Part shown: positions 27,543 to 46,967 of the stretch, one piece after another
Layout of the letters: each line of letters begins with the position of its first letter
Position numbering within the stretch: the first letter of the stretch is position 1
Assembly (NCBI GenBank): GCA_030147845.1
Contig: JASBUN010000046.1
Span: forward strand, 64,430-128,429
Direction: 5' to 3'
Source: Gammaproteobacteria bacterium
GTDB lineage: Bacteria; Pseudomonadota; Gammaproteobacteria; JASBUN01
Length of the DNA: 64,000 nt
The notes under the pieces: generated by a model
The model's input: the letters and a program-made list of their open reading frames with translations, nothing else
Databases searched by the model: none
What the model was told of the DNA's origin: nothing
Program-made: the position numbers and the translations under genes

Positions 27543-27576
27543 GTGGCCTCCTGAAATGACCTCCGCAATGTAAAGT

Positions 27577-29107: not shown

Positions 29108-31048
29108 TTATACCGGCGTATCCAACGCCAAAGACCCATGAGGCGACGGGTGACCGACGTCGGTCACCCGTAACGGTCGCGGCGCCAGCCCGGACAGCCG
29201 AACCTGCCACATCATTTGGTAGGCCGACTCAAGCGCGCGCACGAAGCGCTGGGGATCGAACAGCGGGCCGTGCTCACGTTCGATCACCAGCCGCTGACGC
29301 AGACTGGCCAAAACCTCGGGCTGGCGCGCCAGACGTAACGCCTGGGCGGCATAAGCGGCGCGGTCTTCGCTGATCAACTCGGTCAGTCCAAGGCAGCGCA
29401 ATAAACTGGCCGACACCCGCGAGGCAAATGTCGAGCCGGGACAGGTCAACACCGGAACGCCCGCGCGCAGGGAATCGCTGGCTGTGGTGTGCGCGTTGTA
29501 GTACCAGGTATCGAGAAACAGATCGGCCAAGCGATGACGAGCCAGATGCGCCGGCCGCATAACCCGTTCGGCAAATATCAGCCGCTCGGCGGCAACACCG
29601 TGGCGCACCGCTTGGCGTCGAAGATTGCGCTCGGCCTCCGGCGACGTACGCAGCAGCCAAAGCACACTACCCGGCACCTGACCGAGAATGCGCATCCAGA
29701 CCGCGAATAATTCCGGATCGATTTTGTACGTATTGTTGAAACAGCAGAATACAAAGCTGGACTCCGGCAGTCCCACCTGGGCGCGTGTCGGCGTTTGCGT
29801 GGCCGAAAAGTGCAGGTAATCGTTGACCTGGTAACTGTGTGGCAAATAGACCGGCTGTTCGGTGTACGCAGCCGCCAGTTCCGCCGGCAGTACGCACTCA
29901 TCGACGACGATGTAATCCATAAAATCTGCGCCCAACGTCCCAGGATAACCCAGATAGCTGACTTGAACCGGTGCCGGACGGCGGGCAAACACACCGGCGC
30001 GCATATTCCAGGTGTATCCCTTCAGATCGACCAGAATGTCGATGCCGTCGCTGGCCATACGCTCGGCAATGGCGTCTTCGGTCCAGCCGTCAACGTCGCA
30101 GAACTGATCGCAGTCCTGTTCGATCCGACGACGGTAGTCGCTGCCGTCGTCGCCTCCCCAGCTGTAGATGGAAACCTGGAAGCGGCTGCGATCGTGCAGC
30201 GCAAACAGACTCAGCATGAGCTGAGCGGTCGGGTGATCACGAAAGTCCGCCGAGGCGTAGCCAATGCGCAATCGTTGCCGGGCACCCGGCCGCGGATGCA
30301 CCGGCGCGCCACTCAGCGGTCTGCAGTGCGCAAGCGCATGGCGGGTATAATTTTCCGCGATACGCCGTTGCATTGCTGTATCGATCGGCAATGACAACGA
30401 CATGAACGGCGACATCGGCGTGAGGCGATCCTCGTCGAGCGCCGTTCGCGTTACTCGCAGCAGTTGCTGCAGTCGTGCCGGCCACTCATCCCACGCGCAC
30501 ACCGCCTGATCGAGCAAAACCAGATTCGAGAGTATATAGGGATCGTTTGGGTCGAGCTGACAGGCGCGTTCCAACCAGTGCCGCGCCTCGTCCAGCCGGT
30601 CGAGTTGTCGACAAACCAAACCGAGATCATTACAGCTCGCCGCCGATCCAGGATTCAGCTCGACGGCGCGCAGCAACGCTTCACGTGCATCGGGCAATTC
30701 CCCAGATTCGCATAGCGCATTACCGAGTTTATGGTATGCGTCATGCAGCGTTCCATCGAGCCGAATAGCCTCGCGAAGCAGCGCCGCCGCGGCGCGGTGA
30801 TTTCCCAAACGGAGGTGTTCGGTGGCATCCGCGAGGCGCGATTCCGCATCGCTACACACCATCGTCTGAGCAGCGCGCTGCTCGAAAAGGATCGCCAGCA
30901 GCTGGCGGGCATGCGATTGCAGCGGATCGACAAGAAGTATTTGTTCGTAGATGGCCTGCGCGGTCTCCAGATCGCCGTCACGATGCCTGGCGATGGCGCT
31001 GCGCAACATCACTTCCACCTGACGCCGCTGAATCCGTTCACTGACCAT
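29108..31048 (-). CDS. TPR-repeat protein with a C-terminal OGT-like (GT41) glycosyltransferase domain; a candidate flagellin O-glycosyltransferase.
   Basis: A 646-aa protein with N-terminal TPR repeats. Its C-terminal half (RIGYASADFRDHPTAQLM...LRPAPVQVSYLGYPGTLGADFMDYIVVD) closely parallels the catalytic region of eukaryotic O-GlcNAc transferase. Confidence 0.8.
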   Translation of the reverse strand: MVSERIQRRQVEVMLRSAIARHRDGDLETAQAIYEQILLVDPLQSHARQLLAILFEQRAAQTMVCSDAESRLADATEHLRLGNHRAAAALLREAIRLDGTLHDAYHKLGNALCESGELPDAREALLRAVELNPGSAASCNDLGLVCRQLDRLDEARHWLERACQLDPNDPYILSNLVLLDQAVCAWDEWPARLQQLLRVTRTALDEDRLTPMSPFMSLSLPIDTAMQRRIAENYTRHALAHCRPLSGAPVHPRPGARQRLRIGYASADFRDHPTAQLMLSLFALHDRSRFQVSIYSWGGDDGSDYRRRIEQDCDQFCDVDGWTEDAIAERMASDGIDILVDLKGYTWNMRAGVFARRPAPVQVSYLGYPGTLGADFMDYIVVDECVLPAELAAAYTEQPVYLPHSYQVNDYLHFSATQTPTRAQVGLPESSFVFCCFNNTYKIDPELFAVWMRILGQVPGSVLWLLRTSPEAERNLRRQAVRHGVAAERLIFAERVMRPAHLARHRLADLFLDTWYYNAHTTASDSLRAGVPVLTCPGSTFASRVSASLLRCLGLTELISEDRAAYAAQALRLARQPEVLASLRQRLVIEREHGPLFDPQRFVRALESAYQMMWQVRLSGLAPRPLRVTDVGHPSPHGSLALDTPV

Positions 31049-31061: not shown

Positions 31062-34000
31062 CTACTCGGGAATCACGATATGGGAAGCGGGCTTGCCCGC
31101 TTCCCAGAGCGCCCACATGCGCCGGTAGGCCGACTCCAGGTAACCCACGTAACGCGGTGTATCGAATAGAGGTTGTGTCATTCGGTTTTGCTGCAGGCGT
31201 TGACTCAACTGCAACAACCGCGCTTTGTCACTGGCAAGCGTCACCGCCAGATCTTCATACTGTTGCAGGCTGGCGGTGACCAGCTCCGGTAAACCGACCG
31301 CGTGCAGTAGACTGGCCGCTACGCGCGCGGCGAACGTTTGGCCAGGACAGGTAATCAACGGCAAGCCCGCCCATAGCGCGTCGCTGGCGGTAGTGTGCGC
31401 GTTGCAGTAGAGCGTGTCGAGCAACAGGTCAGCATGCGCGTGACGGGCCAAATGTTCCGGTTTAGGCAGGCGCGGCGCGAACACCAGCCGTTGTGGATCA
31501 ATACCCCGCCGTTCGGCTTCACGCGACAAGTTGAATTGAGCTTCTTCCGATGCTTTGAGCAGCCAAAGAACACTTCCGGGCACGCGCGCGAGGATTCGCA
31601 TCCAAGCGTCAAATATCGTCGGTTCGATTTTGTAGTTGTTGTTGAAGCAACAGAAAACAAACCCCGTTTCCGGCAATCCGCACGCCTGGCGGCTTGGCAC
31701 TGTCTGCGCAATGGCTTGCCTGTGGTCGTTAACCTGATACGAATGCGGCATATAGACCAATTGTTCACGGAAAAACTGCCTCGACTCCGGCGGCGTGACG
31801 TTGGCGTCGCTGATCATATAGTCCATGTATTCAGCGCCCAGCGAGCCGGGATAGCCAAGATAGTTGACCTGTATCGGGGCCGGGCGTAAGGCGAAGATCT
31901 CGGGACGTATGTCGCGCGTATAGCCCTTCAGGTCCACCAGTATATTGATACCGTCATCGGCCACTCGTTGCGCAGTGCGCGCGTAATGTTCATCACTAAT
32001 GTCAATAAAGTGTTCGGTATCCCGCTCGATACGTGTGCGATACTCGCTGCCATCGTCAGATCCGAAAGAATATGCAAAAATTTCGAATTCGTCACGGTCA
32101 TGCAGCCCGAACAAACTCAGCATGAGCTGCGCGGTGGCGTGCGTATAGAAATCCGATGATACGTAACCGATGCGTAAGCGGCCGCTACGCCGCGCACCCG
32201 CGGTAATTTTTATCGCCGGCTCGGTGATCGTCGGCCGAATCACGGTCTGTACATAATTCGCCGCGATGTCGCGCTGCAGGCTCGGCGAAATCGATAATGT
32301 TACCGCATAGAACGGCGTAATTGGGCTGCGCTGTTTTTGTTCGATGAATCGGGCCGTCCACTGCGCCAACTTATCCAGCAGTTGTTCATGCCCATCCCAA
32401 AAACAAATGTCCTGGTAGACTTGAATCAAATTGGCCAGCGCCTGTACGAAATCAGGCTTGACATTAAGCGCTTTGCGATACCAATTGACTGCCTCGCCGT
32501 AGCTGCCGAAATCACGGCATAGCGCACCGAGATTGCTATATACTTCGGCCCGCTCCGGCTGTAGTTCTATTGCTTTGAAATAGCACTCGGCGGCTTCGCG
32601 CGGGCGTGCCTGCGCCTTGCGCACGTTGCCCAGGTTGTTCCAGGCTTCCGCCAATTCGGGTCGCTTCGACAGGACGCGGTTATAACACTCGGCGGCCGCA
32701 TCCAGTCGATGGCGTGTCAAGTGGATATCACCCTGCTTTAAATCCGCCTCGACGTTGTTCGGATCGTAGCCGGATGAAATTTGGTAATGCTCCAGCGCGC
32801 GCTCGAGATCACCTGAGATCTGCAACAAGTGGCTCAAGCGACAATGCATGCGCGACTGCTGCGGTTCGAGTTGCACCGCACGTTCCAAGCAACGGGCTGC
32901 AGCTTCAATCTTACCCTGCTGTTCATAGATCAGACCCAAGTTGTAAAAGCTGTCGGCGTGATCTTGGCACAGCTTTTGGTGACTCTCATAATAACTCGCG
33001 GCGGCATCCAGCTCACCGCGGGCATGCAAATTAGCAGCCAGTAATACGTGCGCATCCGCGAAACAAGGATCGCAATCTATGGCCTGCTTGAAGCACACCG
33101 CCGCTGCCTGCACATCGCCCCGCTGCTGATAGACGCTACCCAATGATGAATGCAGTAGCGCAACGTTCGGTTTCAGCTCAATGGCGCGCTCGATGAGTTC
33201 GGCTGCACGCGCCAAGCGGCCGCCGCTATGTTCGATTACGCCTAACAGGTGCAACGCATCGACGTTGTCGGGCGTCAGATCAAGTACATCCGTATAAACT
33301 TTTTTAGCTAAATCCAACTCACCGGACGAATGCGCCGCTACCGCCTTCTGCAACAACTGCGGGATCCGATCCGGCGACGCGATCGTTTCGGACGTGATGG
33401 TCATTGTTTTTCTGTGCAGCGGCTGTGCTGCCCGCTGTCGCAATGCCGCGTCCACCTGCGCCAGCGTGCCGTCCCAATCACCTGAACTGATCTGGCGAAA
33501 TAAACGCGCCGATGCATACCACGGGCTGTCGTCGCGCCCCGCCAACCAGCGCCAGTCGGCGGCGGCATCGAGCAGCAGCCAGACCTCGCGCCCGAGTGTG
33601 CCGGCCAAATGCGCCACCGCCGTGTCGACAGTGACAATCAAGTCCAGGTTAAGCATCGCCGCCGCGGTATCGGCAAAGTCGTATAGCTGCGCATCAAGCG
33701 CCGTCACGCGCCCGGCACCAGCGGCGTGCGCCAGCTCCCGCGCCGGCGGCCCTTTCTGCAAACTATAAAACGCAGTACCCGGGATCTCGGCCAGCCGCAG
33801 CAGCAAGTGCAACGGGCAAGCGCGTCTGCGATTGTTCGGTTGCTCCGTGTTGCCCGACCAAACAATACCGATGCGTAAGCGCTCTTGATTGCCAATACGA
33901 TCGCGCCATTGCTGCACCAACTCGGCGGCGATCACGGGCGCTTGCGGCGCAGGAATCTGCTCAATGGCGCGACTGTAGAGCGCCGGTAGACTTAAAAGTG

Positions 34001-34988
34001 GAATATGCACGTCGAATTCTATTTTTCCGTCGTCGACATCCTCGCGCGCAACGATTTCGTCAGCGAACCCAGACCTTTGATACAAACGTGAAAGCGCCGC
34101 CGGGCATTCGAACAGTACCCGCCCGCCCGCTTGCAGCACGCGCGGCAAATAGCGCGCGAATTGCAGCGTGTCGCCGAAGCCCTGTTCGGACCAGACCAGG
34201 ATGCGGCGCCCGTTCAGCGCCGCACCGTCCCAGCGCGGAACAGAAAAACTGCGCTGCACGCGCTCGCCACACGCAAAGCCCCACTCATACTCCGGCCAGC
34301 CGCGTGCAAAATCGCCTAATTGCAGCCACAACAGTGAACGGTTCCAGTGCGCCTGCGGCAGTTGTGGCGACAAGCCCAAGGCGCGTTCATAGAATTCAAG
34401 CGCACCGTCAAATTGACCAAGCGCCTGCAACGCGTTGCCGACGTTGCTGTAGGTCGCCGCATGTCCCGGCCGTATCTCCAGCGCCTGCCGGTAGCAATCG
34501 ATGGCTCGACCCGGCTCACCGCGCTGTTTGACCACGTTACCTAAATTGACCAGAGCATCAAAGTAGCGCGGACGCAGACTGATCGCGCGCAACAGGTGGC
34601 TCTCGGCGTCCTCCAAGTGGCCGAGAGCACGTAGCGCAACGGCGTAGTTATTGTGCAACTCGGCGTTGCCCGACTGCATAGGCAACGCCATGCTATACAC
34701 CTCGGCCGCTGCACCCGCCTCGCCGTTGGCGAAGAAGGCGCTGCCGAGCAGTTGATACAAAGCGACCAAGCTCGGGTTTTGCTCCAAGCCGCGCTGGCAA
34801 TGCACGATCAGTTCCGGATAACGGTGCTGCGCGAGGAGCAGCTCACCGAGACGTATCAGTGTATCGGCATGGGCCGGTTGCGCTAGCAACAACGCGCGAT
34901 AGCGATGCTCGCTCTCTACCTCACCGCCCTCGCTCGCCCGGGCATGCGCGTTCAGCGGCAACACTCTCATTTTCCGCCCGCGGCGCAC
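31062..34988 (-). CDS. A 1308-aa multidomain protein: TPR, a GT9 (heptosyltransferase-like) domain, TPR, and an OGT-like GT41 domain.
   Basis: It carries the GT9 signature (DLIVTVDTAVAHLAGTLGREVWLL...W). Its C-terminal module is paralogous to the preceding gene (RIGYVSSDFYTHATAQLM...LRPAPIQVNYLGYPGSLGAEYMDYMISD). Confidence 0.8.
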   Translation of the reverse strand: MRRGRKMRVLPLNAHARASEGGEVESEHRYRALLLAQPAHADTLIRLGELLLAQHRYPELIVHCQRGLEQNPSLVALYQLLGSAFFANGEAGAAAEVYSMALPMQSGNAELHNNYAVALRALGHLEDAESHLLRAISLRPRYFDALVNLGNVVKQRGEPGRAIDCYRQALEIRPGHAATYSNVGNALQALGQFDGALEFYERALGLSPQLPQAHWNRSLLWLQLGDFARGWPEYEWGFACGERVQRSFSVPRWDGAALNGRRILVWSEQGFGDTLQFARYLPRVLQAGGRVLFECPAALSRLYQRSGFADEIVAREDVDDGKIEFDVHIPLLSLPALYSRAIEQIPAPQAPVIAAELVQQWRDRIGNQERLRIGIVWSGNTEQPNNRRRACPLHLLLRLAEIPGTAFYSLQKGPPARELAHAAGAGRVTALDAQLYDFADTAAAMLNLDLIVTVDTAVAHLAGTLGREVWLLLDAAADWRWLAGRDDSPWYASARLFRQISSGDWDGTLAQVDAALRQRAAQPLHRKTMTITSETIASPDRIPQLLQKAVAAHSSGELDLAKKVYTDVLDLTPDNVDALHLLGVIEHSGGRLARAAELIERAIELKPNVALLHSSLGSVYQQRGDVQAAAVCFKQAIDCDPCFADAHVLLAANLHARGELDAAASYYESHQKLCQDHADSFYNLGLIYEQQGKIEAAARCLERAVQLEPQQSRMHCRLSHLLQISGDLERALEHYQISSGYDPNNVEADLKQGDIHLTRHRLDAAAECYNRVLSKRPELAEAWNNLGNVRKAQARPREAAECYFKAIELQPERAEVYSNLGALCRDFGSYGEAVNWYRKALNVKPDFVQALANLIQVYQDICFWDGHEQLLDKLAQWTARFIEQKQRSPITPFYAVTLSISPSLQRDIAANYVQTVIRPTITEPAIKITAGARRSGRLRIGYVSSDFYTHATAQLMLSLFGLHDRDEFEIFAYSFGSDDGSEYRTRIERDTEHFIDISDEHYARTAQRVADDGINILVDLKGYTRDIRPEIFALRPAPIQVNYLGYPGSLGAEYMDYMISDANVTPPESRQFFREQLVYMPHSYQVNDHRQAIAQTVPSRQACGLPETGFVFCCFNNNYKIEPTIFDAWMRILARVPGSVLWLLKASEEAQFNLSREAERRGIDPQRLVFAPRLPKPEHLARHAHADLLLDTLYCNAHTTASDALWAGLPLITCPGQTFAARVAASLLHAVGLPELVTASLQQYEDLAVTLASDKARLLQLSQRLQQNRMTQPLFDTPRYVGYLESAYRRMWALWEAGKPASHIVIPE

Positions 34989-37900
34989 GCGCCGGCAGCC
35001 GCGCCTTCCGTGCCGAGACCCTGCAACCAGTCATCAAAATGATCGTCAAGCATCCAATGCTCATGTGTCCATGCGCGTAGTGCATCACCTTCCCGGCGAC
35101 TGGCGTCAAGATCATTGACGCGTTCCCGTATGGCTTTAATCCACGCCGCCGACGTGTTCGCGACCCGCGTGACCGGCGCATCGCGGTAAGGCTCAATATC
35201 CGTGCAAACTACCGGCCAGCCGAGCGCGCCGTACTCAAGCAGTTTAAGGTTACTTTTGCACTGATTGAAACGATTGTGCGCCAGCGGCGCAACGGCAAGA
35301 TCCAGATCGAGCGCCGCCAAGGTGTTCGGATATTGCTCAAACACAACCGGGTTGTGCACCTCCACACCCAGCGAAAGCCACTCTTCGAAACACAGGCCGA
35401 AAAATACCCACTGGACTTCACTGGCCGTTTTCTTCACGACCTCGTGAATGATGTCTAAATCACCGCTGTGCTGCTGCGCGCCGGCCCAACCGACCCGCGG
35501 CTTGTCGCCGCGACCGCGACGCGATTTCAGCGCCTTCCAGATCGAGCCGTCCAGGTAGTTCGGCACAACCACAATATCATCGCTCCACCCGCGGTACGCC
35601 TGCGCAAGTGCCTCAGTGCTAACAAGCAGCCGGTGACAGGCGCTCATGGCACGGCGCAGACGCTTCTTTACGTCTGGATACACACTCGTGCTGAAACTGT
35701 TATAGCTCGGCAAATGATCGATCAAGTCGTCCTGACCAAACACCAGAAACACGTCTTTGTTGAACCGCCGGTAACGATCCAATGCTTCCAACTGCACGTC
35801 GTGCAATGTGTTGTGGGCCAGCAGAATGTCCGGTGCTTCGCGCGCCAGTTCGGACACACTCGGCACTCGTACACGCTCGATGCATTCCGGAAGCAGATGG
35901 GTCGTCGCCCGCCGCGCGCGCCGTAGCGCTTGCATGGGAATATCCAATCGATGCTGACGCGAGCCCGATGACCCAAGGCTCATGCCTAAGATGCGTGGAC
36001 CATCCGCGCCGTCGTCCCACTGTGCGCACATTTCACTATCCACCGAGTAATCGGTACGTATTAGATTGAGATTGCGGTTGTAGGCCGGATCGCGCGCCAA
36101 TTTCGGCAACCAGCGCTCAAGCATGACTGCAACTTCATTTTTCGCCTGCTGCCATTTTTTCGCATCCTGGTAGTGCCCGTCTTTAAGGCTTGCCGAGCCA
36201 TGATGCACAGCGGTGGAATACGGTGTCCAGACGACGCGAAACCCGTGTTCGCGCACCTTCAAGCACAGATCGACGTCGTTATACATCACCGCCAGCTGGT
36301 CCTCGTCCATACCGCCGACTTGTTCGTAAATCGATTTACGGATCAAAAGACAAGCGCCGGTCAGCGCCGATACGTCGCGCGGACTCTGCGCGATGTTCAT
36401 GGGACCAGCGATTGACATCGGAGCGCCAAAAAACGGATGTTCGGCAACCCCATTTTGGCCCATGCCTAAAACTACGCCGGCATGCTGAATACGCTGATCT
36501 GGAAATACCAACCGCGGGCCAACGGCGCCGACATCCGGTCGCTGCGCCTGACTCATTAAACGGTCCAACCAATTCGGCTGGACAATCACGGTATCGTTAT
36601 TAAGTAATAACAGGTAGTCACCGCATGCTTGCGACGCGGCGACATTGTTGATTGCCGAATAATTGAAAGGATGATCGTAGCGAACCACCGACACCCGTTT
36701 GTGGCGCTGAGCAACCTCGTCCAGATAGCGCAAAGTCCGTTGGTCATCCGTCTGATTGTCGACGACAATCACTTCAAAGTTCTTATAGCCGGTTTTATGC
36801 AGCAGACTCTCCAGACACGGCTCGAGCACGTCCCGGCGGTTGCGCGTCGGCACGATGATCGACACCAACGGTTGAGCGCTGTGCTGATAGTCGATCAGAA
36901 AGCTGCCCGTAGCCAAACCCGGTTCGACCTTGGCGTCGACGCCGGCGCGCGTCAAATGCCCTTCCACGAGGCTCATACCCTGTTCTGACGTCACTTCGCG
37001 TCGTCGCGCGTTAACCTCTAACTGATGTACAAGGACGTCGGCAATATGACCTACGGCTTCGCCGCCAAAAGTCTCGACGACACGCAAACACAAATCGTGA
37101 TTGACCAGCGACCCGAGGCTGACGACACCACCGATGGCAGCTAAAACGGTGCCTTTGACCAGGCAGAAACTGCCTACATAGGCGCAACTTCGCAGCAGTT
37201 CAAGATTGAGGTCCGGCTTGAAACGGGGGTGTGAGCGCGCGCCATCGACGTCGACCGTGTCTTCGTCGGTGTAGACAAATCCAATCGAGGGATTACGTTC
37301 AGCGAATTTCGCGCAGGCGAGCAATGCGCCGGCATCGAGTTGATCGCCGGGTTCCAACAGTGTCACCCAATCCGCGGCGGTTGTCGCGACTGCGGCATCG
37401 ATCGCCGCCGCGATTTCCCGCTCAGCGTGTATCCATTCAAGCATGTCGAGTTCTTCGAACATGGGATCAGGACAGGCCATGGCGGAAACCACCGTCAGGC
37501 CCCAGCCGCCGTAAAGCTGCGCAGACATGCTGTCAATCGTCTTCGCAAGATGCTCAATCGAATCCTCATCGACCACAATGATCACGTGTATGGTTGGCTT
37601 GTGCACCAAACCATCGATCGTTTCCTGTGCGTGTGCTCGCTCGGCGTCGGCACGATGACCACGATGGCGTATCCACTCTGAGTAGGGTTCGACTGTCACC
37701 TTATCAGACGACTCATGCTCGACCTCAACTTCATCTGCATGCGGTATCGGTGCCGGGCGCACGGCGCGTTGCGCGGCGATTGCAGCCAGCTCTGACAAAA
37801 AATCGGCACGTTTTGCGTCGCTCTGATATTTCGCGGCGGCCTGGCAAGCCGCTTCGCCAATTGACGCGCGCAGGGCGGGGTCGGACGCCAAGCGATACAT

Positions 37901-40900
37901 CCACTTCGCCGCTTGCTCAATATCGGCATCAGCCCATACCGCGTCGGCGCCGACGCGCTCACGGCTATAAGCGTTAATTGATGCCTGCACAGGAACTAAG
38001 CGATAATTGACCAGACAGGCGTTGGTGTGGTCCATGAAGCTCATGTTGCCGGACCAGCCGGTCGCGATCACCGGCTTGCCTAACGCCATCGCCTCCATCA
38101 TCCCCAAACCGAAGCCCTCGGCCCGGTGCAGCGACACGAACACATCGCAGCTGGCGTACAACGACAAAACGTCGCTGTAGCTCAACGTATCCGTGATTAA
38201 ATGGACGTTGGCACGGACGCCGCAATAGTCGCGCAAATCCTTAACCCATGCACGCCGTTCGCCGGCGCCGGATGCGCCATTCAGCTTAATGACCAAATGC
38301 GCCGACTGATCGTCGGCGAAAGCGTGCTGGAAAGCCGCCAGCGTCGCGGCCGGGTTTTTGCGTTCCGGATCGCTGTTAAGATCAAAGCTGGAAATGAAAA
38401 TCGTCGCCTTGTCCGGCAATCCGAAGCGATCTCGCTGTGGAGACGACGTGCCCTGCTCGGGCAGCGGGTGTTTAGCGCTCAACACCGGTACGCCGGACAC
38501 CGAAAACGCTAATGCATGACGGATGAAGTCCGATTGCGCAATGAGCACATCCATCGACTGTAGTGCATCCGACCAGCCTCGCGGCAACACGGCCAATTCC
38601 CAAACGCACCAGCAGGCATTAAAACGTGCCGGATTTTGGATAATTTCCGGATATTTGCTAATGAAGCCGGACAAATCCGCGAGTGGAAATACGAATAGAT
38701 TAATTGCATGAGGAAGATCTGTGACCGCATCGACACAGAACCTCTCGAAGCACCGGTCGAACTTTCCGCGCCCCGCACCAGGATCGACGTCATATACCGC
38801 AACCGAACAGCCTTGATCCAAGAGCACCTGCACCACGCTACGCGCCGTAACGCCGACGCCGAGATTACCACTGACGTAGCCAATGACATTGACACCGATG
38901 TTGAGTTTTTGCTTACGCGGGACATCCATATCCGTGACCGTTACCACGGCATCATCGACTTGCATCGGTGCGCGTTGGATCGCCGGTTTAACGTCGGCGC
39001 AGCGCAAACGAACGCGATCCCCGGCCGCGAACATCTGTTCGGCCCGACTACGCTCGCCGATCTGATTCAACGCTTCGCCCAATAGCCAGTATAGGTCCTC
39101 ACAATCCGGATGTAGCTCAACTGCCTTTTCAAGATAAGCGGCGCCATCCTGGGCCGCGTTGGCGTCAATGGTCGCGAGTGCCAAGCCGAGCGTTGCCGGG
39201 CAGCTGTCAGGCATGCGCAGTGACTCGCCGCCATAGAGATGGTCGTTCACCAATCGGTGGACGTAGTAATCCTTCCAAAAATGTGTTTGCTGGACGCCGG
39301 AAAGCTCAGCGACAGCCGGCAAACAGGCGGCCAGCCAGTCTTGGTCCTTGCGCGCGTACGGCGTAACCGATTTTCCGTCTGCGCGCAGCAGACGCATCTT
39401 TGCGAACGTCCGATCGACGTTACAAAACCGGTAGCCCGCGAGCGCTGCCCGCACCCAAAAATCCAAATCGACCGCATACGGCAAATCCTCACGAAACCGC
39501 CCCACCGCGCGTATCAGTTCGGCCGTGAAAAACATCGCGGGCTGAAAAATGTGCAACGGGCGATGCCAACGCAACAGGCGCTGCAGGTCCATTGTCGGCG
39601 GAGGCACGCGAATGCCGATAGGATGGTCGTTCTCCCCAAGAAGGACCACATTGCCGTAGATGAGGTGTACTCCGGCGCCAGGATCAAGCGCTTCCGCGGC
39701 TGTCACAAGTGCGCCTTCGAGGTAAAAGTCATCGGCATTCAACCAACCGATGATGTCACCCGACGCCATCTCCAGCGCTTTATTCAGGGCATCCGGCTCG
39801 CCCCGGTCAGGCTCTGAAATCCAATGTACATGCGGATAATCCCGCAAAATATCCAGCGTCTGATCGTCTGAACCGCCGTCGACGACGATATGCTCGAAGT
39901 TGTCGTAACCTTGCGCGAGTACGCTGTCAATGCATTGTCGAATATAGGCCGCGCAATTCAGCGCCGGCGTAATGATCGATATTTTTGCGCCGCACCCCTG
40001 CACGCCACGTCTACGGGTTGATTCTACCGCCTCACGCATATTCACTCCGTCCGTCTGCCTCGGTGCTGAGCGAGCGTCATGCGACTGCACCCCGATTTTC
40101 CTCGTGCTAGCACCATCGGCGCCAAGGCATTCAACATTCGTATGTTGCCGTGCCGAGCGCACACCCCGGCGCGTTTGCACAGCGTCGAGCATCTGCTGCC
40201 ATCTGCCGGCCTGCACATCAGCGCAAAAATTCTGTCGTATGGTCTCACGCGCTGCTGAGCCCAGCGTCTTGCAGCGCTCGGGATCGCGCCACAGTTCAAC
40301 CACGAAGCGCGCAAACTCTTGCGCGTTGCGCGCGATTAGACCGTTTTTGCCGTGTTCGATCGGCGATTGATCGGCAACGTTCCGCAGTGCAATCACCGGT
40401 ACGCCGTAGGCCATGGATTCGAGAATTTTCACCTGCATTCCGGTACCGCCGATCACCGGACATATGGCGAAGCGGCTTCTCGTATACACGTCACTCAGTT
40501 CGGCTACGTAGCCCGCCAGCTCGACACCGGCCACCGGCACAATCTTGTTGCATGCGCCACCGATCACTTTCAAAACAAACTCCGGGCAGGCCGACCGTAC
40601 GGTCGGCAGCACATTCGCGGCAAAATAGGCGTAGCCTTGAATATTCAAACAGTAATCGGACACCACCAACACAGGCGCACTGTCGTAGCTATTGTCGACG
40701 TTCACAATCTCATAGGTAATCGGGATTTCTTCGACCAATGTTTGCGATGTATGATTTTGAATCAGTTTCGCGTCCAACGATGAAAAGGCCACCGTCACGT
40801 CGTAGTTGTCATAAATCGCATATTCTTCCGCGCCCGCTAACAACGTGCTTAAGTCGATACCCGAATAGAAGTTTTCGGAAAGCGCCGCGGGATTGACTGC

Positions 40901-41395
40901 AGCCGGCTCCACCGGCACCTTGAGATACGGCGCGATACGCGCCTGCATGTGCTCGTTTAATGTCAGTGAGTCGTGACTAACGATGACGCGAATGGCGCTC
41001 TTGTACTCGTCCCCGAGCGCCAATCTTCCCCACCACGCATAATGCACGACAACCAGGTCCGGTTGGATTTTCTGGAACAGGTCACGAAAAGCGTCAAGAA
41101 GCCATGGCGGATTGAAGCGGCTCCAACTGTTTGGCGCCTTACCCCCTTGCCGCGCCGTGTAGAGCGCATCTAACCAGTCACCACCGTAGTAATATACCTG
41201 TGCGCCGAATTCGGTGTTCAGATAATCAACCGCTTCTTTGCTCCACGGAATATCGGTCGAAACAGAAGTCCCGAAAACATGCAGCTCATAGCCGATACTC
41301 GCCAACGCCCGAAGTATCGCCAGTTCACTTCGATGTGTGCCGGTTTGTGGCGGATACGGACAGTAGGGATCAAATACCAGCGCTTTCAATTTCAT
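34967..41395 (-). CDS. A 2142-aa cytoplasmic protein made of about six glycosyltransferase modules (GT4, GT2, GT4, GT2-like, GT2, GT4-like).
   Basis: Repeated GT-A signatures are present (ISIITPALNCAAYI...VVDGGSDD...NADD; VSIIVPTRNRRDVL...VVDNQTDD...NNDT). GT-B C-terminal signatures are also present (HRAEGFGLGMMEAMALGKPVIAT). There are no transmembrane segments. Confidence 0.8.
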   Translation of the reverse strand: MKLKALVFDPYCPYPPQTGTHRSELAILRALASIGYELHVFGTSVSTDIPWSKEAVDYLNTEFGAQVYYYGGDWLDALYTARQGGKAPNSWSRFNPPWLLDAFRDLFQKIQPDLVVVHYAWWGRLALGDEYKSAIRVIVSHDSLTLNEHMQARIAPYLKVPVEPAAVNPAALSENFYSGIDLSTLLAGAEEYAIYDNYDVTVAFSSLDAKLIQNHTSQTLVEEIPITYEIVNVDNSYDSAPVLVVSDYCLNIQGYAYFAANVLPTVRSACPEFVLKVIGGACNKIVPVAGVELAGYVAELSDVYTRSRFAICPVIGGTGMQVKILESMAYGVPVIALRNVADQSPIEHGKNGLIARNAQEFARFVVELWRDPERCKTLGSAARETIRQNFCADVQAGRWQQMLDAVQTRRGVRSARQHTNVECLGADGASTRKIGVQSHDARSAPRQTDGVNMREAVESTRRRGVQGCGAKISIITPALNCAAYIRQCIDSVLAQGYDNFEHIVVDGGSDDQTLDILRDYPHVHWISEPDRGEPDALNKALEMASGDIIGWLNADDFYLEGALVTAAEALDPGAGVHLIYGNVVLLGENDHPIGIRVPPPTMDLQRLLRWHRPLHIFQPAMFFTAELIRAVGRFREDLPYAVDLDFWVRAALAGYRFCNVDRTFAKMRLLRADGKSVTPYARKDQDWLAACLPAVAELSGVQQTHFWKDYYVHRLVNDHLYGGESLRMPDSCPATLGLALATIDANAAQDGAAYLEKAVELHPDCEDLYWLLGEALNQIGERSRAEQMFAAGDRVRLRCADVKPAIQRAPMQVDDAVVTVTDMDVPRKQKLNIGVNVIGYVSGNLGVGVTARSVVQVLLDQGCSVAVYDVDPGAGRGKFDRCFERFCVDAVTDLPHAINLFVFPLADLSGFISKYPEIIQNPARFNACWCVWELAVLPRGWSDALQSMDVLIAQSDFIRHALAFSVSGVPVLSAKHPLPEQGTSSPQRDRFGLPDKATIFISSFDLNSDPERKNPAATLAAFQHAFADDQSAHLVIKLNGASGAGERRAWVKDLRDYCGVRANVHLITDTLSYSDVLSLYASCDVFVSLHRAEGFGLGMMEAMALGKPVIATGWSGNMSFMDHTNACLVNYRLVPVQASINAYSRERVGADAVWADADIEQAAKWMYRLASDPALRASIGEAACQAAAKYQSDAKRADFLSELAAIAAQRAVRPAPIPHADEVEVEHESSDKVTVEPYSEWIRHRGHRADAERAHAQETIDGLVHKPTIHVIIVVDEDSIEHLAKTIDSMSAQLYGGWGLTVVSAMACPDPMFEELDMLEWIHAEREIAAAIDAAVATTAADWVTLLEPGDQLDAGALLACAKFAERNPSIGFVYTDEDTVDVDGARSHPRFKPDLNLELLRSCAYVGSFCLVKGTVLAAIGGVVSLGSLVNHDLCLRVVETFGGEAVGHIADVLVHQLEVNARRREVTSEQGMSLVEGHLTRAGVDAKVEPGLATGSFLIDYQHSAQPLVSIIVPTRNRRDVLEPCLESLLHKTGYKNFEVIVVDNQTDDQRTLRYLDEVAQRHKRVSVVRYDHPFNYSAINNVAASQACGDYLLLLNNDTVIVQPNWLDRLMSQAQRPDVGAVGPRLVFPDQRIQHAGVVLGMGQNGVAEHPFFGAPMSIAGPMNIAQSPRDVSALTGACLLIRKSIYEQVGGMDEDQLAVMYNDVDLCLKVREHGFRVVWTPYSTAVHHGSASLKDGHYQDAKKWQQAKNEVAVMLERWLPKLARDPAYNRNLNLIRTDYSVDSEMCAQWDDGADGPRILGMSLGSSGSRQHRLDIPMQALRRARRATTHLLPECIERVRVPSVSELAREAPDILLAHNTLHDVQLEALDRYRRFNKDVFLVFGQDDLIDHLPSYNSFSTSVYPDVKKRLRRAMSACHRLLVSTEALAQAYRGWSDDIVVVPNYLDGSIWKALKSRRGRGDKPRVGWAGAQQHSGDLDIIHEVVKKTASEVQWVFFGLCFEEWLSLGVEVHNPVVFEQYPNTLAALDLDLAVAPLAHNRFNQCKSNLKLLEYGALGWPVVCTDIEPYRDAPVTRVANTSAAWIKAIRERVNDLDASRREGDALRAWTHEHWMLDDHFDDWLQGLGTEGAAAGACAAGGK

Positions 41396-41437: not shown

Positions 41438-44017
41438 TTAGCGGCCAATGATCTTGCGCGAAGCATTACCGAAACGGTCGTTCGCCCAGGCGTCATTCGA
41501 CTCAAGTCCCAAGGCCCATTCAAAGGCCTTGGCCGATTCCAACTGACGCGCGTCCATGCGCAAATGTTCGCCGAGCACACCCATGACGTTGGCGCAGTCG
41601 GGCATATCGTTACCCAATACCGGGTCAATGATCCCGCCTCGGACTAAACCCAATTCCTTTGCCGCCAGCATAAATCCGGTCATCGCTCGGGGATCGACAC
41701 CGACTTCCACGGCCGCATCGGCGTAGTAGGCAGGACTGCCGAAGTTGCGGAACCGAAACTCGTAGTAATCTTTCCAGAAGTGAATTTGTTCGCCGTCGCT
41801 CAGCGCCTCGAGATGAGGGCTACAGATTTGCAGCCACTCTTGGGCCTTCACCGCGTACGGCGTCTCGGTCTTACCACCCTCGCGATAAATCATCGCCTTG
41901 GCGAACACGCGGTCCAGGTAGTGAAACGCGTAGCCTTTGGCGGCAATACGGAACCAATAGTCATAGTCAACGCCATAATTCAAATCTTCCCGGAAGGGAC
42001 CAACATCGCGCATCAGTTCGGTCGAAAAGAAAATTGATGGCTGGAATAGATTGAGACGAAACCAACGGGTCAGGGTGACCACATTCAGGGGTGCGTACGG
42101 GATGACCCAGTTGGTCGGCACTTCGCTGTCGTCGATAAACAATGCTTTGCCATAAAACAGATGCGCATCGGGATTGTCCGCCGCAGCGTTCGAAATCGCG
42201 TCGAACGCGCCTTTGATGTATCGGTCGTCAGCGTTCAACCAACCAATGATGTCCCCCGAGACCATACGCAACGCCTTGTTGAGGGCTTGCGCTTCACCGT
42301 CATCGGGCTCAGAAACCCAGTTTACGTGTGGATAACGGCGAAGGACTTCCGCGGTGCCGTCAGTAGATGCGCCATCGACAACGATATGTTCGAAATTCTC
42401 ATAGCCTTGCGCCATTACACTCTCGATGCACTTGCTGAGTAATGCGGCGCAATTGAACGTAGGCGTGACAATGCTAATTTTCGGCTTTGCAGCGCGTCCC
42501 GATCGATGAACTGCGCGCAGGCTCGGCGTCGCCGCCCCACGGGCCCGCACGGTGGCTTGCAAATGCTGATATGCGTCCTCATCTTCAGCCCTCAGCCGCA
42601 CGGCTTCTTCCAGATCGCACTCGGACTGCTGCAGATATCCCAGTTCTCGCATCAGGATGCCACGATGGAGAAATACGCTTCCGGCGTCGTAACCGAATCG
42701 CATTGCAAGATCAAACAGTTGCCGCGCTTTAATTTTCTCGCCTCGAGCGGCCAAAGCCCGGGCATGTAGAAAATGCCATTCGCCATCTTCAACCAGATGT
42801 TCACCGCAATCGCCCAACAAATCCGCCGCGCGCTGCCATTGCTGCGCCGCTACAGCGCGCTGCGCCAACGCCTTCACGCAGTTCTGCCACCATTGACGCA
42901 CTTCGGTCGAGTCGCGGCGACGCTCCAAAGCGCGCTTCAGATCCACCTGCGCAGCGTCCAAATGCCCGGCCTGCAATAGTCGCTTACCGCGATTGAAGCT
43001 CACCAGGAACTCGTCCATTCCCTCGATCGTGCCATCTTCAAGCAGTTGTTTCACGTGCTCGCGCAAGCGCGCCAGACGATCATCATCCGGGCTCTGATCG
43101 GCTTGCATGTCCAGCGCCGCAACACAGTCCTCGACACGTCCGAGATGCAGCAACACCCAGGCCCGCCAATAGTTCAATTGGTCGTGCGGCTGACCGGATC
43201 GCACGGCTGACTCGAGCAACGTCAGCGCATATTCGAGCGTCAGGTTATTGGACTGGCTCGCATCGGCGGCCTGCTCGACGGCCATGGCCACTACCTCAAG
43301 TACGTCGTCTACGCTGTAAGCCGGCAACTTCGGCACACGCGGGGCCTGTTCGCCGGCTCGCGTCAGCACTAGATGAAAACTCTCCGACAGCTGTAGCGGG
43401 CCACGCACCCAATCGATGTCAAAATAGTCGGCAAGCTTTTGATGGTGCCGGAATCCGTGCGCGGCGAACAACTCGAGCCACCATTCCTTTCCATGTACCG
43501 TCTGATGGTAAATAACGCCGCCGACGGCATCTTCGAAATCCGCCACGCTCATGATCCAGATGCCGCCTGGCTTTAGGTGTCGACGCACATTACTGCACAC
43601 GGCCTCCAGCTGCGGCTCAGCCACGTGTTCCATTAGCTCCCACGAGGTGACTGCGTCGAACCGCAAGAGGCTGTCGGCCGACGATTTGCCATGCGCGGGC
43701 ACAAGTGAAAATTCTTGCGTCACATCGCAGGTGAATAGATGCTCCGGTATCGCAGGCCACGCCCCGCGCGCGCTGCGCTGGCAGTAATCGCTGCCTTCCA
43801 AACCGATCGCCAAGTGGCCATCGTCCAGACAATCTTTGACGAAAGCTCCGCCCGAGCAGCCCAGGTCCAGAACGCTAGCGCGCGCCGCGTTGAGGAGTTT
43901 GTATAGCTTCTTGTTAAACAGGGGATTGCGGCTGTTATCCTGTTTCGCGCCGTGCGGTGCGATATGATCCGGAGAGTCGGTAGCGACGGGCTTATTGGTC
44001 TGACAGACAATTTTCAT
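41438..44017 (-). CDS. An 859-aa fusion of a SAM-dependent methyltransferase, a TPR/helical linker and a GT2 glycosyltransferase.
   Basis: The N-terminus has methyltransferase motif I (VLDLGCSGGAFV) and a post-I acidic region. A GT2 module (KISIVTPTFNCAALL...VVDGASTDG...NADDRY) is paralogous to the one in the 2142-aa gene. Confidence 0.75.
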   Translation of the reverse strand: MKIVCQTNKPVATDSPDHIAPHGAKQDNSRNPLFNKKLYKLLNAARASVLDLGCSGGAFVKDCLDDGHLAIGLEGSDYCQRSARGAWPAIPEHLFTCDVTQEFSLVPAHGKSSADSLLRFDAVTSWELMEHVAEPQLEAVCSNVRRHLKPGGIWIMSVADFEDAVGGVIYHQTVHGKEWWLELFAAHGFRHHQKLADYFDIDWVRGPLQLSESFHLVLTRAGEQAPRVPKLPAYSVDDVLEVVAMAVEQAADASQSNNLTLEYALTLLESAVRSGQPHDQLNYWRAWVLLHLGRVEDCVAALDMQADQSPDDDRLARLREHVKQLLEDGTIEGMDEFLVSFNRGKRLLQAGHLDAAQVDLKRALERRRDSTEVRQWWQNCVKALAQRAVAAQQWQRAADLLGDCGEHLVEDGEWHFLHARALAARGEKIKARQLFDLAMRFGYDAGSVFLHRGILMRELGYLQQSECDLEEAVRLRAEDEDAYQHLQATVRARGAATPSLRAVHRSGRAAKPKISIVTPTFNCAALLSKCIESVMAQGYENFEHIVVDGASTDGTAEVLRRYPHVNWVSEPDDGEAQALNKALRMVSGDIIGWLNADDRYIKGAFDAISNAAADNPDAHLFYGKALFIDDSEVPTNWVIPYAPLNVVTLTRWFRLNLFQPSIFFSTELMRDVGPFREDLNYGVDYDYWFRIAAKGYAFHYLDRVFAKAMIYREGGKTETPYAVKAQEWLQICSPHLEALSDGEQIHFWKDYYEFRFRNFGSPAYYADAAVEVGVDPRAMTGFMLAAKELGLVRGGIIDPVLGNDMPDCANVMGVLGEHLRMDARQLESAKAFEWALGLESNDAWANDRFGNASRKIIGR

Positions 44018-44227
44018 CGGTTTGGTATCCCCGGCCGCTATGGCCGCTAGAAGAATCGACGTGCATCTTGGCCTGTTGGGTACAACGCCTCACTCATATC
44101 GCAACGCGCATTCTGACAGTAAAGAACGCCCCGTCTGCAGCACAGTACAGACGGAACTTGAGTGCACTCATCCATCCGGACGCATGTTGAAACGCCGCCC
44201 TCGATCGGCCACGCCTTTACCGTCGAT

Positions 44228-44242
44228 GCAATTCATGTGCCA
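44228..44242 (-). promoter_or_regulatory. Sigma54 promoter TGGCAC-atgaa-TTGCA upstream of the four-gene glycosyltransferase operon.
   Basis: A perfect -24/-12 consensus about 210 nt upstream of the ATG at 44017. An AT-rich tract with an IHF-like TATCATaatgTTA lies just upstream, at about 44255-44285. Confidence 0.6.
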
Positions 44243-44520
44243 CGGCGAAAACTTATAACATTATGATAATTAATATTTTTTTATTTCTATGAGGTGTCGG
44301 GAAATTGTCACTAAACACGGTTGATCGCCGATGTGGCGCGCGCGGAGACGATATCGTGGCGCCGTATTAGCGCCATGACTAGCACACGCACAGCGCGGCG
44401 ACCCGCAAACGTGCCGCATGCAGCACGCCCTCGCGCCACGCCAAGGCGGCCGGAAAGCCGCGCTCTAATAGCCGCGTCGTGCTCAGGTGGGTAAAAGGAC
44501 GATCGATACTGAATTGGCCA

Positions 44521-46026
44521 TTAGGCCGATTGTTGCAGACGCTCGACGCGATCCAGCGCTTGGCGCACGGTCGCCACGGTGTCGGCCTGTCCGTCCATGG
44601 TTTCCAGCACCGCAATCACGTTGCGTAGCGTTGCCGGATGTTCGGCGTTCACCTCCATGCTACGCTGTAGATATCCCAGTGCAGCCGCCGGATCACCACG
44701 TGTCCAGGCGACCGTACCGAGATTATTCAAAGCTTCCGCATGTCCAGACTCGATATTCAACACCTGCTGAAACGCGTTGGTGGCGCCATCAATATCGCCG
44801 CGCTGAAATAGCAGTTCACCTTCGGCGTTAAGCGCATCCGCCGACGACGAATCAGCGCCGACACTAGGGGCCGGACGCGCGGGCGTGAACGTGTCGCGTA
44901 AATCCGACAAGCGCTCGCGGATCTCTTGGTCGTCGGGGAAATCGGCGAGGTAGCTGGTGTACAAAGTCTCGGCATCAGCATGGCGATCACTGGACAGCAA
45001 TACCTGACCCGCATTCAGAACCAGATTGCGGTTGTCCGGCGCATGCTCCATGCCGCGGGCGAAACATTGCAAGGCTTCACCTCCCTTACCAAGCGCCCAG
45101 AGGCATACACCCAGGTTGTCAAGCGTCTGTGGGTCGGTCGGGGCCAGTTGCAACGCTTGTTGAAAGCTGCGCAGCGCGGCAACCAAATCGCCCGCATTAT
45201 AAAGCTGTTCTCCGACCGCGTTGAGTTGCGTCAGTTCCGTCGTGTCGTCGTAGGCAGTCGTCCTTTGGCCGCTTTGCGCGCGCCATTCGGGGTACAGGCG
45301 ATCCATCAACGGTGAGCACCAGCGCTCGAAGGCGGCCCACTCCGGCTCGCCCCACGACACCGCAATATCGGCCTGGCCGGCGGCAGGCTCATCAAGATCA
45401 AACATCACTTGCGGTCCGTGCTTGAGACCGAGCCAGTCCATCAGCGCGCCGATATCCCGGCCGAGATCCTCCAGCCGTACAAGGCGAAATTGCGCATTGC
45501 GGGCATGTGTTCGTAGATCCGATTCGATCAACTGATTGATGTAGCCCCAATACCAGCACCGCTTTTCAAAGGCGGTCATGTTTGCCCACGCCTGTGCATC
45601 GACATCACCGCAAAAATCGCCGCGTACTTGACCTTGTATCCAGCGCTGTTCAACCGCCGACATACATCCATCAGCCCGCTCATGGTTGCCGTACCAACCT
45701 TTTAGCGATGCGGAGTTCACGAAATCGATAGCGTTGCGAACCAACCAAAGGTAGTGCGCCTCGGGGAACGCGCGCGACACCGCAGGAATAACCCACGATA
45801 AGGCGCGACTGGATTCGCCATACGGCTTATGATTTTGCGTGGCTGAGCGGGTGAGTCGCAGCATTCTTTCGATCTGTTCTGCGCTCGCGTTACCGTATCG
45901 AAATGCCGACGCCTCCTCGATCAGCATCGGTTCGGGTTCATGCAAGCACACGCAACGGCTCTGCTCGAGCAAGACATTCGCGACCGATAACATGCCGCAT
46001 TGCCCGGTACCGAAAATAAAAAACAT
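44521..46026 (-). CDS. A 501-aa protein with an N-terminal P-loop sulfotransferase-like domain (degenerate PAPS-binding motifs) and C-terminal TPR repeats.
   Basis: It has a MFFIFGTGQCGML 5'-PSB-like loop and a YLWLVRNAIDFVNS 3'-PB-like motif. The C-terminal 200 aa are TPR-like (ALNNLGTVAW, LDNLGVCLWALG). Confidence 0.5.
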   Translation of the reverse strand: MFFIFGTGQCGMLSVANVLLEQSRCVCLHEPEPMLIEEASAFRYGNASAEQIERMLRLTRSATQNHKPYGESSRALSWVIPAVSRAFPEAHYLWLVRNAIDFVNSASLKGWYGNHERADGCMSAVEQRWIQGQVRGDFCGDVDAQAWANMTAFEKRCWYWGYINQLIESDLRTHARNAQFRLVRLEDLGRDIGALMDWLGLKHGPQVMFDLDEPAAGQADIAVSWGEPEWAAFERWCSPLMDRLYPEWRAQSGQRTTAYDDTTELTQLNAVGEQLYNAGDLVAALRSFQQALQLAPTDPQTLDNLGVCLWALGKGGEALQCFARGMEHAPDNRNLVLNAGQVLLSSDRHADAETLYTSYLADFPDDQEIRERLSDLRDTFTPARPAPSVGADSSSADALNAEGELLFQRGDIDGATNAFQQVLNIESGHAEALNNLGTVAWTRGDPAAALGYLQRSMEVNAEHPATLRNVIAVLETMDGQADTVATVRQALDRVERLQQSA

Positions 46027-46070: not shown

Positions 46071-46967
46071 TCAGCGTAGATAGTTGAACAACGAAAGTCC
46101 CTGCACCTTAACGTAGGTCTGCTGCGCGGCGTTCAATCCAGTCATTTGCTGATTGAGGCTGGTCACTGCCGAGGCGTAATCCAAATCTTCGATTTGGCTT
46201 TTGGTTTGTTGAATCTGCAGGATATTGGTGTCGTTCACACTTTTTTGCAGGTCGATGGCATTGAGCCGTGCGCCTACGCTCGCCTGAATCGTTAATATGT
46301 TTTTCATCGCCGCGTCGATTTCGGTAATCGTCGAAGGACTCGGAGTATTGGCATTCAGATCAGTCACCATTTTTTTCAAAATACCGAAGGTATTGCTCGT
46401 CGTTCCCGGAATATTCATGAACACGCTCGCGCCGGAATCGCCGGTGGTAATATAGCGCGTAGGTCCGATCTGCAGCGAGCGCTGACCCTGGTCACCAGCG
46501 TAGGTAAACGTGCCGTTACCGGTTTCCGAAAATGGTGTCTGTTTCGATTGATATCCAGCGAAAATATACTCGCCATTGGCATCCTGCGTGTTCGCCAGAT
46601 TTTTCATACTGTCGAGCAGCTGGTTGACTTCAGTCGCAATGGCCTTGCGGCTGTCGGCGCTTTCAGTGCCGTTGTTGCCCTGAACCGCCAGTTCGCGCGC
46701 GCGTTGTAATAAACTTACCGCGTTGGTGAGCGTGCCGTCCTCAACATTCAGGCGCGCTTGGGCTGCATTCGAATTACTTTGAAACTGCTGATTCAATTGC
46801 AACGATTGACTCAGCCCAAGCACGCTGGCGGCACCGGATGGATCATCGGCCGGACTGACAATGCGCTTGCCGGTGGACAACTGCAACTGCGTCTTGCTGA
46901 TCTGGGCCTGCCGATCCAGCATCGCATTAACGCTGAGCGTCTGCATCTGTTGTGTCGAGATTCTCAT
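46071..46967 (-). CDS. flgL: Hook-filament junction protein FlgL (HAP3)
   Basis: A 298-aa protein with a flagellin-like N-terminus (MRISTQQMQ...RIVSPADDPSGAA). Confidence 0.9.
   Translation of the reverse strand: MRISTQQMQTLSVNAMLDRQAQISKTQLQLSTGKRIVSPADDPSGAASVLGLSQSLQLNQQFQSNSNAAQARLNVEDGTLTNAVSLLQRARELAVQGNNGTESADSRKAIATEVNQLLDSMKNLANTQDANGEYIFAGYQSKQTPFSETGNGTFTYAGDQGQRSLQIGPTRYITTGDSGASVFMNIPGTTSNTFGILKKMVTDLNANTPSPSTITEIDAAMKNILTIQASVGARLNAIDLQKSVNDTNILQIQQTKSQIEDLDYASAVTSLNQQMTGLNAAQQTYVKVQGLSLFNYLR

Follow-up and report, generated by a model that had tools for sequence, protein, structure and literature searches.

The window analysed here is a 64,000-nucleotide stretch of contig JASBUN010000046.1 from a Gammaproteobacteria bacterium (assembly GCA_030147845.1, positions 64,430 to 128,429). 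It contains two neighbouring minus-strand genes coding for proteins of 501 and 859 amino acids (aa), and both open reading frames (ORFs) were found exactly at the coordinates given in an earlier note on this DNA. They are the first two of the five genes that occupy the flgL-fliC interval, where the gene order is flgJ-flgK-flgL-501-859-2142-1308-646-fliC-flaG-fliD (island genes given by the length of their products in aa). The 859-aa protein joins an S-adenosylmethionine (SAM) methyltransferase to a family 2 glycosyltransferase (GT2). The 501-aa protein combines a sulfotransferase fold, whose cofactor loop lacks the catalytic arginine, with a tetratricopeptide repeat (TPR) domain. With moderate confidence, we favour a glycan island in which the 859-aa protein methylates a sugar and the 501-aa pseudo-sulfotransferase is kept as a binding or adaptor subunit. 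Judged from the sequence, the flagellin sugar coat is likely to be methylated, but sulfation by the window copy is doubtful.

The fold of the N-terminal domain of the 501-aa protein was assigned through its relatives. The Sulfotransfer_3 family (PF13469) scored below threshold with the protein itself (E 0.022, 15.5 bits against 27), and a phmmer search of PDB sequences with the N-terminal domain alone returned nothing meaningful. Homologues with 34-51% identity came from a word-indexed search, and four of five (P0002-P0005) passed the Sulfotransfer_3 threshold. The profile search gave 144 relatives, nearly all annotated as PF13469, and most of 120 relatives scored above its threshold. When 1.84 billion cluster representatives were searched exhaustively, 930 matched at E ≤ 1e-3. 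A profile scan of genome contigs located the family at 30 loci across many phyla, none of them above 43% identity; the hosts are almost all uncultured. The family profile together with a structure model revealed an alpha/beta P-loop sulfotransferase fold, and only by this route was the relationship to the protein-tyrosine sulfotransferases (TPSTs) visible. TPSTs are the closest solved structures and sequence profiles; the nearest known proteins are TPST1/TPST2 (PDB 5wri, 3ap1-3), the CurM/OLS domains (4gbm, 4gox) and Sulfotransfer_3, at an identity of just 13-16%. By these profile and fold matches, aa 1-255 fall into a Sulfotransfer_3 family that has no characterised member and a fold like that of TPST and CurM. 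Unlike TPST and CurM, the window protein is bacterial and cytoplasmic, has a C-terminal TPR domain and is encoded in a flagellar locus. The earlier note had described a sulfotransferase-like fold with a substituted loop for 3′-phosphoadenosine 5′-phosphosulfate (PAPS), followed by TPRs, and the family profile, the fold, and the PDB and Pfam matches bear this out.

The active site was compared with that of TPST by aligning the family profile with it. The family motif T-G-R-S-G-S/T corresponds to G-V-P-R-S-G-T-T, the 5′-phosphosulfate-binding loop of TPST, and R-D-G-R-D-V-V-A-S corresponds to R-D-G-R-A-S-V-H-S, its 3′-phosphate-binding motif. By sequence alignment alone, the family H-E pair (H29 in 100% and E30 in 98% of members) matches TPST1 G-E-E, which holds the catalytic Glu, and the family has E-S where TPST has N-K158. 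The P-loop Arg of TPST touches the 5′-phosphate/sulfate, and the Ala mutants of TPST2 at Arg78, Glu99 and Lys158 lose most of the activity (PMC10951654). At this loop, where a catalytic Lys/Arg followed by S-G-T/S is expected, the window copy reads G-Q-C-G-M (aa 8-12), so that Gln has replaced the catalytic Arg, and Met the loop Thr. Loop counts refer to family members with a readable N-terminus. About 230 of the 231 others have the loop G-R-(S/C/A)-G-(S/T). The Arg itself is present in all other aligned members and in 115 of the 116 readable sequences among 127 further representatives, the only exception outside the window lineage being the distant P0262 (G-G-A-G-S). The G-Q-C-G-M motif is common to the window protein, P0013 (98% identical) and P0022 (85%). 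Since the change occurs in three independent assemblies, a sequencing error was rejected. The loop codons are GGG CAA TGC GGC ATG in the window and GGG CGT TGC GGA ACG in the nearest intact orthologue (L003).

The loop is not the only altered site. Six further deviations (R133Q, N213E, G99A, A104N, L83V and G238S) affect positions conserved in at least 85% of members, so that the window lineage departs from the family at 7 of 47 such positions; the closest sisters do so at 0-1 and the median member of the family at 2. The commonly basic positions R165, R179 and K/R91 are also lost. Because the loop Arg and Thr (T12; GRCGT to GQCGM), R133 and N213 are all replaced, sulfate transfer would have been lost or strongly reduced in the window lineage. 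The suggestion in the earlier note that this gene implies a sulfated glycan is therefore overstated for this copy, which lacks an Arg kept by about 230 relatives and needed at the equivalent position of TPST2. The data favour its fallback suggestion, in which the degenerate domain has a non-catalytic role.

To see how the domain is maintained, dN/dS (the ratio of nonsynonymous to synonymous substitution rates) was calculated by the Nei-Gojobori method between the window and the orthologous locus L001 (dS ~0.3-0.4). The values were 0.18 for the sulfotransferase-like (ST-like) domain, 0.17 for the TPR domain of the same protein, 0.13 for the methyltransferase domain, 0.055 for the GT2 domain of the 859-aa protein and 0.02 for flgL. 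The value of 0.18 indicates that the ST-like domain is maintained. Pseudogene decay was rejected on this ground and because the frame is intact in three assemblies. Within the TPR-fused clade the window lineage has a long branch, with a mean identity to the members without TPR of 0.376. Among its six sisters, four have 0.42-0.435, and P0036 (0.395) and P0068 (0.378) are also low. These comparisons suggest that the altered ST-like domain was kept after a burst of change. Separately, P0068 (L035, 5376-6899), which represents a second flagellar lineage of the ST-TPR architecture, has kept the P-loop Arg and independently acquired G8R, Ser105 to Glu, R133S and N213S. This erosion hints at relaxed catalytic constraint within the TPR-fused clade.

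Several observations weigh against a non-catalytic subunit. The 3′-phosphate-binding residues R97 and S105 are kept, so PAPS or 3′-phosphoadenosine 5′-phosphate (PAP) might still bind, and H29-E30, with the putative catalytic Glu, is also kept. Arg was gained at positions 74 and 156, where the rest of the family has 0% Lys/Arg, and R74 lies two residues past the position aligned with the catalytic Lys158 of TPST; these gains could offset the loss of R9. The dN/dS of the domain is equally compatible with a still-active enzyme. PAPS use by the whole family, from which a loss is read, is deduced from fold and motifs. For the island as a whole, a hydropathy scan of 19-residue stretches (usual threshold 1.6) found no transmembrane-like segment in four of the five proteins (all <1.6), but the 2142-aa protein has one stretch at 1.84 (aa 1407), which we read as a buried element. 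It is possible on these grounds, but rather unlikely, that the 501-aa protein is an active PAPS-dependent sulfotransferase with a remodelled site, in which R74 (by the E71-S72 loop, aligned with TPST N157-K158) and/or R156 replaces the charge of R9 and the glycan is both methylated and sulfated. Related islands hold intact copies of the gene and extra sulfotransferase genes, and sulfation therefore seems to be part of this type of island. Against an active window copy stand the near-universal P-loop Arg, required in TPST, and the joint loss of T12, R133 and N213 in a lineage on a long branch. We consider it extremely unlikely that the family are not sulfotransferases at all but P-loop enzymes with another donor, such as a kinase or phosphotransferase that modifies the glycan, for which the altered motif would mean a change of ligand.

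The position and the fusions of the relatives were examined next to these motifs. Every TPR-fused member that could be placed directly follows flgL, and with the window this makes six kinds of locus. In L001/L002 the island is the same as in the window. In L003/L004 an ST-TPR gene with an intact GRCGT loop is followed by genes for a small methyltransferase, a DegT aminotransferase, a hexapeptide transferase and a multi-glycosyltransferase of >2359 aa. The stand-alone methyltransferase of L003 was tried as an orthologue of the window methyltransferase domain and rejected; the order of ST-like gene and then methyltransferase therefore recurs by function, not by homology. In L035 the ST-TPR gene precedes a gene for a 1099-aa GT2-TPR-methyltransferase protein (7316-10615) with a weak N-terminal Sulfotransfer_3 match, in L036 it again directly follows flgL, and in L037 a Sulfotransfer_1 gene (4659-5330, E 2.2e-21) lies two genes further on. 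In other relatives, the ST-like domain shares its polypeptide with GT2, with hexapeptide acyltransferases or with complete sets of modules. Thus P0150 (2397 aa) is an ST-TPR-MT-GT2-TPR-GT2-TPR protein (ST, ST-like domain; MT, methyltransferase), in which the methyltransferase and ST modules are functionally linked within one polypeptide, and P0146 (1227 aa) is ST-TPR-GT2-GT2. Fusions of this kind tie the ST, TPR, methyltransferase and GT2 modules into one pathway, and by their domain content they point to glycan tailoring as the general role of the family. Two other giant fusion proteins, P0147 and P0148, combine this ST-like domain with GT2 domains and with another, canonical Sulfotransfer_3 domain (E ~1e-37).

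The same fusions bear on the possibility that the TPR-fused clade sulfates the flagellin protein itself, by Tyr or Ser/Thr O-sulfation as in TPST or RaxST, with the TPR domain presenting flagellin. The nearest structures and profiles are indeed those of protein-tyrosine sulfotransferases, and the TPR fusion suggests a protein substrate. However, the repeated fusions to GT2 and hexapeptide acyltransferase fit glycan tailoring. The window flagellin has a Ser/Thr-rich central segment with a single Tyr in this exposed part and no acidic flanks, and the window copy has no catalytic Arg anyway. We regard sulfation of the protein as very unlikely. Sulfation of a glycan by the relatives is a different matter. 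We tentatively propose, as a possibility below even chance, that ST-TPR proteins beside flgL are an unrecognised class of flagellar sulfotransferases, whose relatives with intact GRCGT sulfate flagellin O-glycans, and that the window lineage has turned this protein into a conserved pseudo-sulfotransferase, now an adaptor of the glycosylation machinery that binds flagellin or the glycan.

The 859-aa protein has none of these defects, since motif I of its methyltransferase and the L-N-A-D-D motif of its GT2 are both intact, and by their dN/dS the two domains evolve under purifying selection. The methyltransferase domain scored 43.9 bits with Methyltransf_23 (gathering score 27), Methyltransf_25/12/11 were above threshold too, and motif I (L-D-L-G-C-S-G-G) marks it as a class I SAM enzyme. 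A PDB sequence search matched it to PH0226 and UbiG (E ~1e-4 to 8e-4). The GT2 domain scored 86.1 bits with PF00535 (threshold 23.3), contains the metal/donor motif L-N-A-D597-D598 and matches chondroitin synthase 2z86 (E 1.4e-14, PDB sequence search). Between them lies a TPR-like helical region that also weakly matches SycD/LcrH-like and SctY-like proteins. The methyltransferase-GT2 fusion that the earlier note had read from the sequence was confirmed by these Pfam and PDB matches. The architecture recurs in P0122 and P0123, and the fusion is an ordinary tailoring module. The GT2 domain with its C-terminal extension resembles the first GT2 of the 2142-aa protein (aa ~463-790, window ~39300-40000), with 45% identical residues across 330 aa; on this similarity, the two modules are a local duplication within the island. 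A role in defence was considered and rejected. With PADLOC, the 501-aa protein had no match and the methyltransferase domain of the 859-aa protein a marginal one to mad2 (E 3e-4), and therefore nothing points to a defence system.

The earlier note had compared this protein with WsaE, and the comparison holds in part. WsaE of the Geobacillus stearothermophilus S-layer glycan has an N-terminal 2-O-methyltransferase and two rhamnosyltransferase domains; it caps a lipid-linked polymer, the methyl cap ends the chain and an ABC transporter exports it (PMC2943079). Compared by architecture only, both proteins have a methyltransferase N-terminal to a glycosyltransferase in one chain, and the WsaE cluster likewise has a TPR protein, WsaA (PMC2943079). 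The 859-aa protein differs in having one GT2 instead of two glycosyltransferase domains and an internal TPR region. The domain scan of the window ORFs covered the window except for ~11-22 kb and 50-56 kb and found flagellar, chemotaxis or soluble glycosyltransferase genes; among the ORFs scanned there were no genes for Wzm/Wzt, an ABC transporter, a polyprenol-phosphate or initiating phosphotransferase, or an oligosaccharyltransferase. Lipid-linked assembly of the Wzm/Wzt type is accordingly not seen in these ORFs, and the island proteins look mostly soluble. What stands of the WsaE-like logic is the fusion of an N-terminal methyltransferase to a glycosyltransferase.

Closer parallels are found in Pseudomonas. 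In P. syringae (fgt1/fgt2 and the viosamine island) and P. aeruginosa PAK, the island likewise lies between flgL and fliC, flagellin is O-glycosylated at Ser/Thr, and a dedicated methyltransferase, VioM, acts on the terminal sugar. In P. syringae, VioM adds a methyl group to the modified viosamine at the end of the flagellin glycan, and each glycan of the mutant is 14 Da lighter (PMC3927599). The DegT aminotransferase and hexapeptide transferase of L003 resemble VioA/VioB. The window island differs in that its methyltransferase is fused to TPR-GT2, its glycosyltransferases are multidomain proteins of giant size and it also has GT41 enzymes; moreover, the gene list of the P. syringae viosamine island (PMC3927599) has no sulfotransferase-like gene. 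The GT2 fusion and the island context make methylation of the flagellin glycan by the 859-aa protein plausible. The earlier note had held that methylated or sulfated flagellin sugars would be uncommon. Because of VioM (PMC3927599), this does not apply to methyl groups. For sulfate the case is different: literature searches gave no relevant report of sulfated bacterial flagellin glycans or of sulfotransferases in flagellin islands.

The flagellar setting that the earlier note had assumed is supported by the position of the genes, a cluster of glycosyltransferases between flgL and fliC within a flagellar regulon. A polar flagellar and chemotaxis cluster fills most of the window. The scanned genes encode CheZ, FliA, FleN, FlhF, FlhA, FlhB, FliR, FliP, FliO, FliN, FleQ and tPilZ, and also FliD, FlaG, FliC, FlgL, FlgK, FlgJ, CheR, CheV, FlgA, FlgN and a YcgR-like protein. 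Between the flgL stop codon and the start of the 501-aa gene lie 44 nt, and all five island proteins carry TPRs. The coordinates of the features are collected in Table 1.

Table 1. Features of the flagellin island and its borders in the 64,000-nucleotide window.
Feature	Position in window	Strand	Basis
501-aa gene (sulfotransferase-fold domain and TPR domain)	44521..46026	-	ORF; Pfam; family, fold and PDB matches
Sulfotransferase-fold (TPST/CurM-like) domain, aa 1-255	45262..46026	-	Family profile, fold, PDB
Degenerate 5′-phosphosulfate-binding loop T-G-Q-C-G-M-L, aa 7-13	45988..46008	-	Family consensus T-G-R-S-G-(S/T)-x
3′-phosphate-binding motif W-L-V-R97-N-A-I-D-F-V-N-S105, retained	45712..45747	-	Aligns with TPST R-D-G-R-A-S-V-H-S
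TPR domain of the 501-aa protein, aa ~260-495	44542..45249	-	TPR_2 E 2.4e-22; PDB consensus TPR and OGT TPR
859-aa gene (SAM methyltransferase, TPR region, GT2)	41438..44017	-	ORF, Pfam, PDB
Class I SAM methyltransferase domain, aa 40-188, motif I VLDLGCSGG	43454..43900	-	Methyltransf_23 E 2.7e-11
Central TPR-like helical region of the 859-aa protein, aa ~264-490	42548..43228	-	TPR_19 E 1.1e-5 (aa 264-319), TPR_16
GT2 (GT-A) domain of the 859-aa protein, aa ~510-760	41738..42490	-	PF00535 E 3.5e-24 (aa 515-637)
Sigma-54-type promoter ahead of the 859-aa gene (503-bp gap), TGGCAC-N5-TTGCA	44227..44242	-	Exact consensus match
flgL, upstream border of the island	46071..46967	-	Domain scan; synteny in L001-L004, L035-L037
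2142-aa multi-glycosyltransferase, GT4-GT2-TPR-GT4-GT2-GT-B, next island gene after the 859-aa gene	34967..41395	-	Pfam
1308-aa TPR and GT41 (OGT-like) protein	31062..34988	-	Glyco_transf_41 E 2.8e-119
646-aa TPR and GT41 protein	29108..31048	-	Glyco_transf_41 E 2.5e-110
Flagellin, 280 aa, presumed acceptor	28044..28886	-	Flagellin_N and Flagellin_C

Signals of co-regulation were found in the gap between the two genes. An AT-rich block precedes its sigma-54 site, and a version with one mismatch (TGGCAT-N5-TTGCA) stands at the aligned position of L001. The exact consensus TGGCAC-N5-TTGC(A/T) also occurs at 14304-14319, 27576-27591 and 56427-56442. The site at 27576 lies just upstream of fliD, and it and the site at 44227 are the two placed at gene starts. 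Allowing up to one mismatch, 10 matches were found against 3.15 expected. An RNA element was considered as the content of the gap and rejected, as an Rfam scan of 27000-47500 gave no match and the sigma-54 promoter accounts for the gap.

TPR domains in flagellin-modifying enzymes have precedents. In FlmG of Caulobacter, the TPR domain docks the enzyme onto flagellin and is needed for modification (PMC7591256), and Maf-1 of Shewanella combines a catalytic domain with a flagellin-binding TPR, also needed for modification (bioRxiv 2023.12.03.569772). They may serve as a model for the TPRs of the 501-, 859-, 1308- and 646-aa proteins, although the catalytic domains there are GT-B or Maf, and here a sulfotransferase fold, methyltransferase-GT2 or GT41. 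By this analogy, the TPR domain of the 501-aa protein is presumed to dock flagellin or a partner protein.

Domain identities, fold, motif states, synteny, co-regulation signals and selection were read directly from the data, while the acceptor, the reaction order, the loss of activity and the role as a scaffold are inferred from them. Under the favoured reading, the island would consist of flagellin O-glycosylation genes inserted between flgKL and fliC of a FleQ/sigma-54-type polar flagellar cluster. The glycan would be built in the cytoplasm, directly on the Ser/Thr-rich middle of flagellin, and the TPRs, as in FlmG and Maf-1, would dock the enzymes to flagellin or to one another. The two GT41 proteins are candidates for attaching the first sugar to flagellin. 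The 2142-aa glycosyltransferase and the GT2 domain of the 859-aa protein, the latter adding one sugar, would lengthen the chain, and the SAM methyltransferase domain would O- or N-methylate a sugar. The 501-aa protein probably descends from a real PAPS-type sulfotransferase family, whose TPR-fused members are a fixed component beside flgL. In the window lineage it would have been kept as a non-catalytic subunit that binds flagellin, the glycan or PAP, or as an adaptor of the machinery.

Some other features of the window were recorded. The 2142-aa protein has at least five glycosyltransferase modules, its ORF shares a 22-nt overlap with that of the 1308-aa protein (34967-34988), and the two paralogous TPR-GT41 proteins lie directly upstream of fliC. 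Two proteins of the cyclic di-GMP receptor type are encoded within the flagellar cluster, an atypical tPilZ beside fleQ and a YcgR-like PilZN-PilZ protein (24531-25115, 60564-61280). At the edge of the cluster, genes for a DUF2064 protein and a small GT2 protein are adjacent (61277-62663), with ORFs overlapping by 8 nt, and a RelA/SpoT C-terminal fragment (62993-63973) adjoins this pair.

Glycans on flagellin affect motility, phage and immune recognition, and surface charge, and known bacterial decorations include acetyl, methyl, amidino, acyl and phospho groups. The kinds of enzyme described here are themselves known; new are the architecture, the context and the lineage-specific degenerate active site. 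A gene with a sulfotransferase fold is fixed beside flgL in several uncultured lineages, and the relatives with an intact motif predict sulfated flagellin glycans, that is, +79.957 Da on glycopeptides. Retention of the catalytic Arg in some orthologues and its loss in others provides a natural experiment. For annotation, the 501-aa protein should not be called an active sulfotransferase. With its domain under purifying selection, the window copy offers a candidate bacterial pseudo-sulfotransferase, useful for studying non-catalytic roles in multi-enzyme glycosylation complexes. If the proposal holds true, it would be a bacterial pseudoenzyme that arose inside a protein glycosylation pathway.

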